IMG/VR virus record: IMGVR_UViG_3300034418_006582
Span: 1-64,000 of that record
DNA: 64,000 bases
DNA from: a virus
Strand: one strand, 5' to 3'
Part shown: one piece after another, positions 2,878-29,062 of the stretch
Numbering within the stretch: position 1 is the first letter of the stretch
How the letters are laid out: every line of letters begins with the position of its first letter
Position numbers and translations under genes: made by a program
Notes under the pieces: model-generated
What the model was told of the DNA's origin: nothing
Database searches by the model: none
The model's input: only the letters and a program-made list of their open reading frames with translations

Positions 2878-3041
2878 CTTTCGTTAGTTAGTGGAAGGGG
2901 GTATCTTACCCCCTAGCAACCTCTTAAATTCTCAACTAGTTGAATAGTTCAAATTATGGCTGTCTCCCACCATTTTACAAAGCGTGTAAGCTAGCTTGCT
3001 ATCGATCAACTATTTAGCTGATCTCTTAATGCTTTGTAAAG

Positions 3042-3116
3042 TGGAGCTGGAGGGAATCGAACCCTCGTTAGATTACTGGTAATTGGGGACCAGCAACCTC
3101 TAACCCTGTCAGCCCC
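3042..3116 (-). ncRNA. tmRNA-like tRNA-like domain without an mRNA-like domain
   Basis: GGGGCTG/CAGCTCC acceptor stem with G3:U70 and A73, stemless D loop, 10-bp helix with 8-nt loop, T arm GAGGG-TTCGATT-CCCTC. Confidence 0.75.
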
Positions 3117-3759
3117 TTAGATCCAGTTGATCTTTAATCCATTCAATAATATCTTGTGGACTGTTAGATCCGAGATCTTTAACAATCTTTTCTTCCCATT
3201 TATAAAAGTGATCAGCGTCAATACCAAATCTGTATCGACCTAGTTTAAATCTAATTGTTGTTTCATCATCAGGTTCGTCAATATCCTCTTCCTCAAATAT
3301 GTTGTATTCCATATCATCTAAAAGGTTTTGCATATCATCTAAATCAAAACCAACACCAGAAAGATCTTCAGTATCTGTAGCTACTTTATCTAACAGATCC
3401 ATAAGTTCATCGGTTTTCCAACCACCTTTTTCTACTAATCTATTTGAAGCAATTAAATATGCGTCAGCCTCAGCGTCTGACTTAAAAGAAACACCTGTAA
3501 CAACAGGAATCAACCAATTACCATCATCATCTAAGTTGATGTTTGTTGGTGGATTACTTTTATCTTCTTTTTCTAATAATTTAAGTGTTTCAAGCCGACC
3601 ATGACCAGCAACTAGTTTCCCAGTTGTTTCATTTTTTATAATCGGCTCTACAAAGCCCCATCTTTTAATAGATGAATAGATCTCCCCAATATCATGATCT
3701 TTAGGGTTAGCATCTGCCACCTCTATATCATTTAATGAGAAATATTCTATTTTTGTCAT
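3109..3759 (-). CDS. ParB/Srx-like N-terminal domain protein
   Basis: NPKDHD..SIKRWGFVEPII..LVAGHGRL..ASNRL pattern. Confidence 0.8.
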   Translation of the reverse strand: MTKIEYFSLNDIEVADANPKDHDIGEIYSSIKRWGFVEPIIKNETTGKLVAGHGRLETLKLLEKEDKSNPPTNINLDDDGNWLIPVVTGVSFKSDAEADAYLIASNRLVEKGGWKTDELMDLLDKVATDTEDLSGVGFDLDDMQNLLDDMEYNIFEEEDIDEPDDETTIRFKLGRYRFGIDADHFYKWEEKIVKDLGSNSPQDIIEWIKDQLDLRG

Positions 3760-26815: not shown

Positions 26816-27455
26816 CGCTTTAGAAATATTAAAAGAAATGCAAGATGACTATGTAGATCATGTTTTTACTAGTCCACCATACAATATTGGCAGAAGTAGA
26901 TCTATACAATCAAAAGCAAAAGGTAAATATGAACATTTTGAAGATAGTAATGAAAACTATTTTGATTGGTGTACAAAAATCATTGACCAGCTTTTAAGAG
27001 TTTCTAGTGGGTATGTTTTTTGGAATATACAAGCAAACTCACAAAATAAAAAAGATGTTTTTAAACTAATAGGTCATTATGCAGATATTTTAGAACAAAA
27101 CTTTATTTGGTATAAGCCTAATGCGACACCTAGTTCAAAACAATATTATGTTTCAAATGTAGTTGAATATATTTTATGTTTTTCTAAATCTAAGGTAAAA
27201 GGAAATAAACATTTTTTAAGAAATCATGTTGAAATAAATAAAGGAACTAAGTATATAAAAAACTTAAATGCACAAATGCCTCTTTCTTTAGCTGATCATT
27301 TTATTAAAAATTACACACAAAAGGGCGAAATTGTACTAGATCCTTTCTTAGGTAGTGGAACAACTGGAGTAGTTTGCATGAATAGACAAAGAAGTTTTAT
27401 TGGTATAGAATTAGTACCAGAATATTTAGAAATAGCAAAAGAAAGAATCAAATGA
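26793..27455 (+). CDS. DNA methyltransferase (beta class)
   Basis: TSPPY and VLDPFLGSGTTG motifs. Confidence 0.92.
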   Translation: MITLFQGDALEILKEMQDDYVDHVFTSPPYNIGRSRSIQSKAKGKYEHFEDSNENYFDWCTKIIDQLLRVSSGYVFWNIQANSQNKKDVFKLIGHYADILEQNFIWYKPNATPSSKQYYVSNVVEYILCFSKSKVKGNKHFLRNHVEINKGTKYIKNLNAQMPLSLADHFIKNYTQKGEIVLDPFLGSGTTGVVCMNRQRSFIGIELVPEYLEIAKERIK

Positions 27456-29062
27456 GACTTGGCAGCATGTTTGCAGGTATTGGTGGTATAGAACTTGGCT
27501 TAGTTAGATCAGGACTTGTTACTGATGTCAAATGGCAAATAGATAACGATGAATTTTGTACAAAAATATTAAAAAAAAATTTTCCTGATAGTTTAGTTTT
27601 AAACAAAAATGTTGAGGAAATAAACACAAAAGATTTACCAGAGGTAGATATTATCACAGCAGGTTTTCCTTGCCAGCCAGTAAGCGTGGCAGGAAACCAG
27701 AAAGGAGTATTAGATGAAAGATGGTTATGGGATGAAGTCGAAAGATTTATTAATGAGTTACGACCACCAGTCTTCATGTTGGAAAATGTCCCCAACATCC
27801 TCAGAGCAAGCAACGGAGAAGCCATTAATCGTGTCCTCAAAGGTGTGGCCGAAATGCGCCATTATAGATTTGAATGGCAACTTATATCAGCAAAGTTCGT
27901 TGGAGCAAGGCACAAAAGACAAAGATGGGTGGGAGTTGGAATCGTGGGAGACACCGAACACTATGGATCACTTGCCAGCGAGATCAGGGGACGCTTTGGA
28001 GAGAGCCTTGTATCGTGGAGATCCAGAGAGGAAGAGCAAAAGAAAATCTACTGGCAACTTGCGAGAGAATCCGAAAATTTGGTTAACACCCACAACAATG
28101 GATCAGAAAGAGGACAGCCTGAAACACGCAACGAAACTCATGCAGGGGAAAACACGCAGAGCGACAGGTCACAGAATACAGAGAACTTTGAGCGATCAAG
28201 TCTGGATGGACATGATAGAAAAGGATCCGAGCCTAATGGAGTATTACCAGGATCACGAGATAGTGAAACGACCAATGCTTCCAGATCAAATGGAGTTCGT
28301 GGAATATCTGAGGAGTCAGACATCAGCAACCAAACTTCAGAAATTGACAGGAATAAAGAAATCAACAGTGGATCATTGGTTCAGGAAAGACAAATACTTC
28401 AGTCATCCAACAGTGGATCAATGGATTCAGATCAAACCTCATCTACAGGAGATCAAATACGACAAGGAATTGATGACAGTGGAAGTGATGGAGTGGAAAA
28501 CCAAAGAGGAAATGGAGATGTGGCCGACACCATCGACACAGGACAACGAACACAAGAATTTGGAACTGAACGACAAGGGCAGGAGAGTAGCGAAAAGTGG
28601 GGGCGAGAGCAGATCCCTCAATCTAGCAGACAAAGTGCAAGTGAGGGAAAAGGAAACTTTTTCGACACCAGCAGCAAGTCAAGCCTCAAAGCCAGTCAAT
28701 CGCCATACCCCATCAGCGAGAGCAGGGAAACACGGCTCTACTTTGGAACAGGACATTGGGGAACGAGATCCAACATTGATTGGCAAGCGCCTCAACCCAG
28801 CATGGGTGAACAGACTTATGGGTTACCCAGATGGTTGGCTGAACTTGGACTAACTAACGATTGGGGAATTGATAGCGAGTGGGAAAAAGGACAAGAAAGA
28901 GTAGCTGAACGCAAAGATAATGATGTTGACAGACTTAAAGCTCTAGGAAATGGCGTAGTGCCACAATTCTCTGAGCTTGTAGGTCGATTAATCATCAGAT
29001 CCATGATTGCAGAAACTTTAGTCTTTGATCCAGAAATCGTTAAGGTAGATCGTCCTCAGTAA
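27452..29062 (+). CDS. C5 cytosine methyltransferase, alpha chain (motifs I-VIII and X)
   Basis: FAGIGG, GFPCQ, ENV, HKRQR and RLKALGNGVVP motifs. Confidence 0.88.
   Translation: MRLGSMFAGIGGIELGLVRSGLVTDVKWQIDNDEFCTKILKKNFPDSLVLNKNVEEINTKDLPEVDIITAGFPCQPVSVAGNQKGVLDERWLWDEVERFINELRPPVFMLENVPNILRASNGEAINRVLKGVAEMRHYRFEWQLISAKFVGARHKRQRWVGVGIVGDTEHYGSLASEIRGRFGESLVSWRSREEEQKKIYWQLARESENLVNTHNNGSERGQPETRNETHAGENTQSDRSQNTENFERSSLDGHDRKGSEPNGVLPGSRDSETTNASRSNGVRGISEESDISNQTSEIDRNKEINSGSLVQERQILQSSNSGSMDSDQTSSTGDQIRQGIDDSGSDGVENQRGNGDVADTIDTGQRTQEFGTERQGQESSEKWGREQIPQSSRQSASEGKGNFFDTSSKSSLKASQSPYPISESRETRLYFGTGHWGTRSNIDWQAPQPSMGEQTYGLPRWLAELGLTNDWGIDSEWEKGQERVAERKDNDVDRLKALGNGVVPQFSELVGRLIIRSMIAETLVFDPEIVKVDRPQ
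27714..28853 (+). CDS. C5 methyltransferase beta chain (TRD plus motif IX), nested in another frame
   Basis: WETP/WLTP/WPTP/FSTP repeats and RLNPAWVNRLMGYPDGW. Confidence 0.8.
   Translation: MKDGYGMKSKDLLMSYDHQSSCWKMSPTSSEQATEKPLIVSSKVWPKCAIIDLNGNLYQQSSLEQGTKDKDGWELESWETPNTMDHLPARSGDALERALYRGDPERKSKRKSTGNLRENPKIWLTPTTMDQKEDSLKHATKLMQGKTRRATGHRIQRTLSDQVWMDMIEKDPSLMEYYQDHEIVKRPMLPDQMEFVEYLRSQTSATKLQKLTGIKKSTVDHWFRKDKYFSHPTVDQWIQIKPHLQEIKYDKELMTVEVMEWKTKEEMEMWPTPSTQDNEHKNLELNDKGRRVAKSGGESRSLNLADKVQVREKETFSTPAASQASKPVNRHTPSARAGKHGSTLEQDIGERDPTLIGKRLNPAWVNRLMGYPDGWLNLD

Follow-up and report, generated by a model that had tools for sequence, protein, structure and literature searches.

Trans-translation is the main route of ribosome rescue in bacteria and a drug target. 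Its RNA, the transfer-messenger RNA (tmRNA) that ssrA encodes (Rfam family RF00023), carries a message domain with a resume codon, a tag frame and a stop codon, as well as a ring of pseudoknots, in addition to its tRNA-like domain (TLD). One phage RNA with the TLD only has previously been on record, that of mycobacteriophage DS6A, which is named among nine 'standard, no CDS' (no coding sequence) sequences in a 2025 tmRNA database paper (PMC11915505). The DS6A element could be located at 28478-28560 of JN698994, a record that annotates nothing there. In this work, a stretch of 64,000 nucleotides (the window) was analyzed, which is the first 64 kb of the IMG/VR virus record IMGVR_UViG_3300034418_006582, 78,156 bp long and rated complete by CheckV. 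The element under study is a 75-nt gene at 3042..3116 on the minus strand, with only a tRNA-like domain, in which RNA position i corresponds to window coordinate 3117 − i. With high confidence, it can be regarded as a functional gene of the phage whose product is a tag-less mini-tmRNA from the DS6A family.

The window RNA resembles the DS6A RNA in being phage-encoded and about 80 nt long, and in having the G3:U70 pair, A73, a stemless D-loop analogue, a closed helix-2 analogue and the T arm. Neither RNA has a message or pseudoknots, and both score just under the Rfam cut-off (46 bits for the window RNA, 43.2 bits for that of DS6A, which also gives a sub-threshold global match). In contrast to the window RNA, that of DS6A and those of many metagenomic members have UCGAC...(G)CAC or GGAC joints and an inner GAAAACC hairpin. 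DS6A is a GC-rich actinophage, whereas the window belongs to an AT-rich freshwater phage, and in the window, unlike in DS6A, the stop codon of the upstream gene lies inside the RNA. The first 8 nt (GGGGCUGA), the alanine identity and the T loop are those of standard ssrA, and over its last 27 nt the gene does not differ from tmRNA genes of Bacteroidota, Acidimicrobiia and others, but the resume codon, tag frame, stop codon and pseudoknot ring (PK1-PK4) are all absent, and the gene has 75 nt instead of the 366-442 nt of bacterial loci.

Other message-less forms have been described in organelles, namely in jakobid mitochondria and as genes of about 65 bp in Mallomonadaceae plastids (PMC11915505). 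These natural tmRNA derivatives, too, retain just the tRNA-like part and are presumed to work together with SmpB, but the mitochondrial ones are mostly permuted or two-piece and derive from reductive evolution, whereas the window holds a one-piece viral gene that would rely on host SmpB. An earlier note on this DNA, made from the sequence alone, had mentioned only mitochondria as the source of such RNAs; they do occur there, although not as the sole case, since DS6A provides a phage precedent. Engineered TLDs, such as the one joining 25 nt of the 5' end and 34 nt of the 3' end of T. thermophilus tmRNA by UUCG (PDB 2CZJ; PMC3929946), are also made of two tmRNA ends connected by a capped helix 2, and they bind SmpB, become charged and enter ribosomes in vitro (PMC3929946). 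Those laboratory constructs keep the native joint; the gene in the window is a natural one, its joint is altered, and its loop motif is conserved. Finally, tRNA-Ala has the same G3:U70 pair, A73 and T arm, but also a D stem, an anticodon arm and U8, where the window RNA has A8 and a long helix in the place of the variable arm.

Structure of the RNA and match to tmRNA models

Read as the reverse complement of 3042-3116, the RNA starts with GGGGCUGA and ends with GAGGGUUCGAUUCCCUCCAGCUCCA, as the earlier note had described. It folds with an energy of −34.2 kcal/mol compared with a mean of −22.2 kcal/mol for shuffled sequences (z = −3.9), none of 200 shuffles being as good, and its GC content is about 55% in a genome of 33%. 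The 7-bp acceptor stem is formed by the 5' strand GGGGCUG (3110..3116), which contains the G of the alanine identity pair G3:U70, and by the 3' strand CAGCUCC, which is followed by the discriminator A at 3042 (3042..3049 with the strand), as read from the sequence; these and the following elements are all on the minus strand. The unpaired ACAGG (3105..3109) is the start of the stemless D-loop analogue, and its GG (G11-G12) matches the conserved GG of tmRNA. No D stem is present, and position 8 is A.

The long helix, analogous to P2/H2 of tmRNA, has its 5' strand at 3089..3104, with a UUAGA that the models align to the UUCGA of tmRNA, and its 3' strand at 3067..3080, ending in AAC as the counterpart of the tmRNA GAC. 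The joint is thus UUAGAG...UAAC in place of the canonical UUCGAC...GGAC. In the minimum-free-energy fold this helix has 14 bp (6 + 8 pairs with a 2-nt bulge), longer than the 10-bp connecting helix proposed earlier, and it is capped by the 8-nt loop CCCCAAUU (3081..3088). The T arm (3050..3066), found both in the fold and in the Rfam alignment, has a 5-bp stem GAGGG/CCCUC and the loop UUCGAUU. The other features claimed in the earlier note, that is, G3:U70, the discriminator A, the lack of a D stem, the 8-nt loop, the length of 75 nt and a CCA end that is not fully encoded, could all be recovered in the sequence or the fold.

The best-scoring Rfam family for this RNA was tmRNA, and four lower-scoring overlapping matches to other families of clan CL00001 were set aside. 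The alignment to RF00023 is global, from model position 1 to 374, with 10 nt standing in for 276 inner positions (10-13 nt for the inner part of the model over two alignments). The parts matched are the acceptor stem, the T arm, the 3' end, the GG-UU stretch of the D-loop and some of helix 2. The score was 46 bits (E = 1.3e-18) in one run and 37.5 bits (E = 2.8e-14) in another. The message domain, with resume codon, tag frame and stop codon, is absent from the RNA.

A covariance model, R1, was also built from 16 diverse phage elements of the family described below, with a seed that contained neither DS6A nor the subfamily of the window. R1 matched the window RNA end to end with 43.7 bits (E about 1e-8), as its sole match in the 64-kb window, and the DS6A TLD-only tmRNA, again end to end, with 55.7 bits. 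The three closest relatives of the window RNA gave 29-54 bits, while full-length tmRNA genes reached just 18-25 bits. Since R1 matches both the window RNA and the DS6A RNA, the element belongs to an already known kind. It has the DS6A-type layout, a one-piece gene of about 65-90 nt whose two tmRNA ends are connected by a closed helix and which has no coding part. Within this known but barely described kind, it is a member of a distinct subfamily with an altered joint and a conserved CCCAAUU loop. The earlier reading as the tRNA-like domain of a message-less tmRNA is borne out by the best Rfam family, by the R1 match shared with DS6A and by the lack of a tag-like frame, as no reading frame ending in ..LAA or ..ALAA was found in the 78-kb genome.

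The DNA continues with C, U, U after the discriminator A, so the CCA end is not encoded. Among the 120 listed bacterial loci with the same 27-nt 3' end, none was a short form, and the gene measured 366-442 nt where the 5' end could be located. Encoded CCA was present in just 14 of these 120 full-length genes, and 16 continue with CTT like the window. Since bacterial tmRNA genes with the same 3' end are mostly without CCA, its lack is normal for such tmRNA genes.

A decoding tRNA was considered as well and rejected, because an RNA without an anticodon arm cannot decode. ARAGORN detected no tRNA or tmRNA in the window or in the whole genome, so a better fit to a canonical tRNA, which the earlier note had put forward as an argument against its own reading, was not found.

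The phage-borne family and the closest relatives

An exact pattern of the two RNA ends separated by a gap of 35-60 nt was found in seven further viral contigs, and a looser two-end pattern in at least 118 viral contigs, with 109 unique matches among those listed. All family counts given in this section likewise refer to the matches listed. The T-stem pairs that the looser pattern left free were paired in 108-109 of the 109 matches, by several pair types, and acceptor pairs 5, 6 and 7, also left free, were paired in 89, 94 and 107 of them, respectively. A second scan was anchored on the D-loop, the joint and the T arm alone, with the acceptor stem unconstrained, and gave 94 unique matches, mainly 74-81 nt long. 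Ninety of these 94 have a perfect 7-bp acceptor stem. G3:U70 is present in 90/91 and A73 in 91/91, while pairs 4-6 vary freely, and the GG of the D-loop analogue was observed in 80 of 86 family members. The two scans pooled yield at least 164 distinct elements in viral contigs, in at least 121 clusters at 85% identity, where DS6A had been the single phage TLD-only tmRNA on record.

Since the length of the joint varies, a pairing test with a fixed register was unsuited to this family, and duplex energies and a gapless alignment were used. In the gapless alignment of 16 diverse members, 95.9% of the cells were paired, compared with 71% for shuffled and 38-52% for slid partners. Changes on both sides were seen in 14 of the 23 pairs, across all four helices, and in 7 of the 8 pairs of the long helix. 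For 86 members, the 5' and 3' interior strands of the same RNA pair with −11.4 kcal/mol, compared with −6.1 kcal/mol when combined with strands of other members (p = 1e-15). The structure of the family is under selection. From its sequences, charging by alanine also looks selected, as G3:U70 and A73 are near-invariant when the acceptor stem is left unconstrained. To judge by the family, a compact RNA directed at trans-translation may be carried by many uncultured phages.

The Rfam cut-off missed both elements tested (window and DS6A), and ARAGORN reported no gene at nearly all family loci scanned. At least one match, that in contig L006 (L numbers denote viral contigs), is an odd tRNA-Ala according to ARAGORN. 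At four loci, the program calls long 'tmRNAs' with implausible tags (L016 7371-7673, L027 2976-3318, L032 2273-2616 and L033 1436-1922). Each of them shares its 3' end with a mini-tmRNA element, and these calls are probably spurious and a possible source of wrong annotation. Some phages have the mini-tmRNA in or beside large tRNA arrays (L004, at 64-2002 and 2690-2765, L034 and L071), and in L071 it is found amid three tRNA-Ala genes. Most other loci, the window included, have no tRNA. No neighbour gene was common to more than 7 of 86 loci. Among cultured phages, no close DNA relative was found. T-arm matches in Cellulophaga, crAss-like, Pseudomonas and Xanthomonas phages and in cluster M mycobacteriophages were discarded, as they belong to full-length or permuted tmRNA genes or to a tRNA, with no short form among them.

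Three related phage contigs, L003, L041 and L374, encode ParB proteins that are 71%, 72% and 65% identical to that of the window. The gene order in the window is replication initiator, a protein of about 168 aa, SSB, ParB and the RNA gene; L003 and L041 match it in the order and sizes of their open reading frames (ORFs), and the RNA gene directly follows ParB in all four phages. The four RNAs share one fold, with z from −2.1 to −4.2. Their long helix differs in sequence, yet it stays paired through compensatory changes, and one acceptor pair is flipped from U:A to A:U in L374. The CCCAAUU loop motif is kept in all four phages (3081-3088 in the window and the equivalent positions in the others). 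Its complement AATTGGGR is not enriched in the window, and no partner for the loop was found. The joint is UUAGA(G/A)...(A/U)AC in three of the four phages and GUCGAG...UAC in L374. In this last RNA (L374 3139-3214), the T loop is UGCAAUU instead of UUCGAUU, and the D-loop analogue is without the usual GG, a change that may represent a covarying tertiary contact.

The long helix of the window RNA also contains CCAGUAAUC, at 3079..3071, which the earlier note had connected with an early-leader motif while allowing for coincidence. Its presence is confirmed, but the motif is not kept in the three closest relatives, and on sequence grounds the match in the helix is most likely due to chance. The early-leader motif CCAGTAATC itself is weakly over-represented when one mismatch is accepted, and the relatives do not conserve it.

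The ParB-like gene (216 aa, 3109..3759, minus strand, assigned to PHROG ParB families) is located upstream of the RNA gene, and the overlap of its stop codon with the RNA, already noticed from the sequence, was verified: the TGA at 3111..3109 corresponds to RNA nt 6-8. The stop is a TGA at the same RNA positions in L003 and L041, whereas L374 has a TAG instead, with G1 as the last base of that codon. Because the stop codon is inside the RNA or touches its 5' end, RNase P cleavage at G1 would remove the ParB stop in all four phages. In the wider family, an upstream ORF of at least 100 codons ends in the TGA at nt 6-8 in 8 of the 72 members having that TGA. The overlap may be mere genome compaction. 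A more elaborate and rather improbable proposal is that ParB is wired to the mini-tmRNA, in such a way that RNase P would leave a non-stop ParB message, and the charged RNA together with host SmpB would resolve the stalls on this and other non-stop messages by adding an untemplated alanine and not the ssrA degron. If true, it would be a phage-run, template-free rescue pathway deciding the fate of ParB. The gain from the window by itself is modest, consisting of a new subfamily and the recurrent overlap with the ParB stop.

Proposed function and rival explanations

Alanyl-tRNA synthetase (AlaRS) recognizes G3:U70 and A73, and SmpB binds the elbow of the TLD, where it stands in for the anticodon and D stems. 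Helix 2 of tmRNA mimics a long variable arm (PMC3968760). In E. coli, A15, U17 and A334 form the pocket that receives Trp122 of SmpB, and binding requires G19 (PMC8363625). By alignment to Rfam tmRNA and to R1, the counterparts of nucleotides in contact with SmpB are present in the window RNA: U15 and G17 are the equivalents of E. coli U17 and G19 and lie in the 5' strand of the long helix, and A49, in its 3' strand, is that of A334. The genome content is consistent with the mechanism proposed below: the phage itself encodes no SmpB, tRNA, tag frame or integrase.

The best explanation overall, to which slightly better than even chances are given, is that the tag-less mini-tmRNA gene of the DS6A family acts through charging and competition for SmpB. 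Its function would most likely be to bind host SmpB and compete with the host tmRNA. According to the proposed mechanism, the RNA would form the end of the transcript of the replication-module operon (replication initiator, SSB and ParB) and be excised by host tRNA-processing enzymes, with RNase P cleavage at G1, 3' trimming and CCA addition. It would fold as the upper half of a tRNA, with a closed long helix at the point where helix 2 of tmRNA would lead to the message. Host AlaRS could charge it with alanine via G3:U70 and A73, host SmpB would bind its elbow, and the RNA would rival the host's own tmRNA in access to SmpB, to EF-Tu and to the empty A site where ribosomes have stalled. Since it has no resume codon or tag frame, ssrA tagging would be uncoupled or blocked during infection. 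Regarding related molecules, crystals show SmpB bound to an engineered TLD with a closing UUCG loop (PMC3929946), and a DS6A-like molecule, in the secondary accounts of Mao et al. 2009 (PMC4131195, PMC11915505), strongly inhibited tmRNA in E. coli whether chargeable or not, perhaps by SmpB titration. The functions proposed in the earlier note, titration of SmpB or release without a tag, are in line with what these two papers say on DS6A.

Several points weigh against this explanation. Whereas the sequence, the fold, the family membership, the conservation and the covariation were observed here, processing, charging, SmpB binding and the effect on trans-translation were all deduced, and it is not evident what a phage would gain by blocking ribosome rescue. 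Both Rfam scores are just below the gathering cut-off of 47 bits, and no match at the gathering threshold was obtained in the 64-kb window. The altered joint pairs as an ordinary helix in the minimum-free-energy fold, as opposed to the single-stranded D-loop that SmpB normally holds (PMC3968760), and the inner AAACC hairpin of DS6A and many family members is replaced by the plain CCCCAAUU loop. A frequent, though not universal, element of the family, an A-rich bulge with a short CC..GG hairpin at the end of the long helix, is thereby missing. The host is not placed, as the 3' end is shared by several phyla, and host tmRNA and SmpB are therefore not directly comparable. Moreover, a role beyond that of a passive SmpB sponge is suggested by the near-invariance of the alanine identity.

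This last point also speaks for a productive tag-less rescue, in which the charged RNA and host SmpB would enter stalled ribosomes, accept the nascent chain and add at least one untemplated alanine, freeing the ribosomes without an ssrA tag; the phage would gain translation capacity and keep the products of truncated messages. Near-invariance of G3:U70 and A73 with the acceptor stem unconstrained points to charging and not to mere SmpB sequestration. A TLD fragment with SmpB also supports template-free polyalanine synthesis in vitro (PMC3929946), message-less tmRNAs persist beside SmpB in jakobid mitochondria, some plastids have tmRNAs without CDS, and the 2025 tmRNA database lists tags of Ala-Ala alone (PMC11915505). 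However, the DS6A-like molecule is described as inhibitory in E. coli even when not chargeable (in the account given by PMC4131195). The RNA also has no stop codon, so that release of the peptidyl-TLD needs another factor, and no release or hydrolase gene is linked to it, with no neighbour shared by more than the 7 of 86 loci mentioned above. Productive rescue is considered the less likely use of the RNA. The near-invariant alanine identity makes the choice between SmpB soaking and ribosome entry directly testable.

Readings in which the mini-tmRNA would not act on trans-translation at all find less room. The tRNA-like fold could be a cis-acting processing signal that draws RNase P and 3' enzymes to cut between ParB and the downstream methyltransferase genes, ParB being controlled by removal of its stop and the released RNA having no role. 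The position of the element at an operon junction without its own promoter or terminator would fit, as would the ParB stop inside or touching the 5' end in all four relatives and the 8 of 72 family members with an upstream ORF closing at nt 6-8. Nevertheless, any tRNA-like fold would do for RNase P, whereas G3:U70, A73, the stemless GG-UU(C/A)GA loop and the ..AC before the T arm are kept in more than 120 clusters and in unrelated gene contexts, and some members are found inside tRNA arrays; this explanation is accordingly judged improbable. Still lower is the probability that the RNA is a decoy or target of a host defence recognizing tmRNA-like or tRNA-like RNA, such as the SmpB-like domains of CoCoNuT type IV restriction systems or tRNA-directed nucleases. 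The SmpB-like OB folds of CoCoNuT are predicted to bind tmRNA-like RNA (PMC10542128), and the family is almost wholly phage-borne in the sample, with no short form at the 120 bacterial loci listed, but no direct link was found, defence or anti-defence genes are not consistently adjacent, and the host is not placed.

Phages often integrate into ssrA, and bacterial tmRNA genes have exactly the same 27-nt 3' end, so a dead remnant also had to be weighed, be it an attP site, a piece of host ssrA picked up by the phage, or a tmRNA or tRNA gene in decay. It is very hard to believe. The gene has both of its ends, connected by a helix with covariation among relatives, it has about 55% GC in a 33% GC genome, and it is kept in four phages whose ParB proteins are just 65-72% identical, within a large covarying family. 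The genome has no match to a tyrosine integrase, serine recombinase or other resolvase (no PF00589 or PF00239), nor to SmpB. A split tmRNA with a separate message gene was tried too, but the 78-kb genome contains no tag-like frame, and the T-arm-like motif occurs in it only once, in the mini-tmRNA itself. Since integrase, SmpB, tRNA and tag frame are all missing from the genome, the attP remnant, which the earlier note had named as a possible refutation, and the split tmRNA were rejected.

Host, expression data and neighbouring genes

Protein matches of ParB and of a 536-aa ORF at 27452-29059, which proved to be a DNA methylase, were distant and taxonomically mixed. The freshwater origin and the low GC content (about 33% in the DNA around the mini-tmRNA gene) are compatible with a Bacteroidota host, and no more than compatible.

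Six freshwater metatranscriptome runs contain the flanking genes as assembled contigs. The contigs of three runs end at 3194-3203, two of them with adaptor letters, and one of these three runs (X12) has a separate contig at 2600-3029, with the RNA gene uncovered between them. In a fourth run, a single contig bridges 2740-3800. The contig breaks around the RNA gene are compatible with processing there; assembled contigs show no RNA ends and cannot exclude DNA carry-over, so they count neither for nor against expression.

Neither an intrinsic terminator 3' of the RNA nor a promoter directly 5' of it was found. Between the RNA gene and the first methyltransferase gene there is a spacer of 164 bp (2878..3041, minus strand), with blocks that are conserved in L003 and L041. 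Among them are a TGATGGGAGA-type box, a promoter-like TTGTAA-16-CATAAT (2980..2953) and a GC hairpin (2914..2896), the last just ahead of the first methyltransferase gene, and the spacer may be a regulated promoter and leader. Directly downstream, three DNA methyltransferase genes in tandem occupy 656-2877 on the minus strand and belong to PHROG families 67 and 498, and the 536-aa methylase is encoded at 27452-29062.

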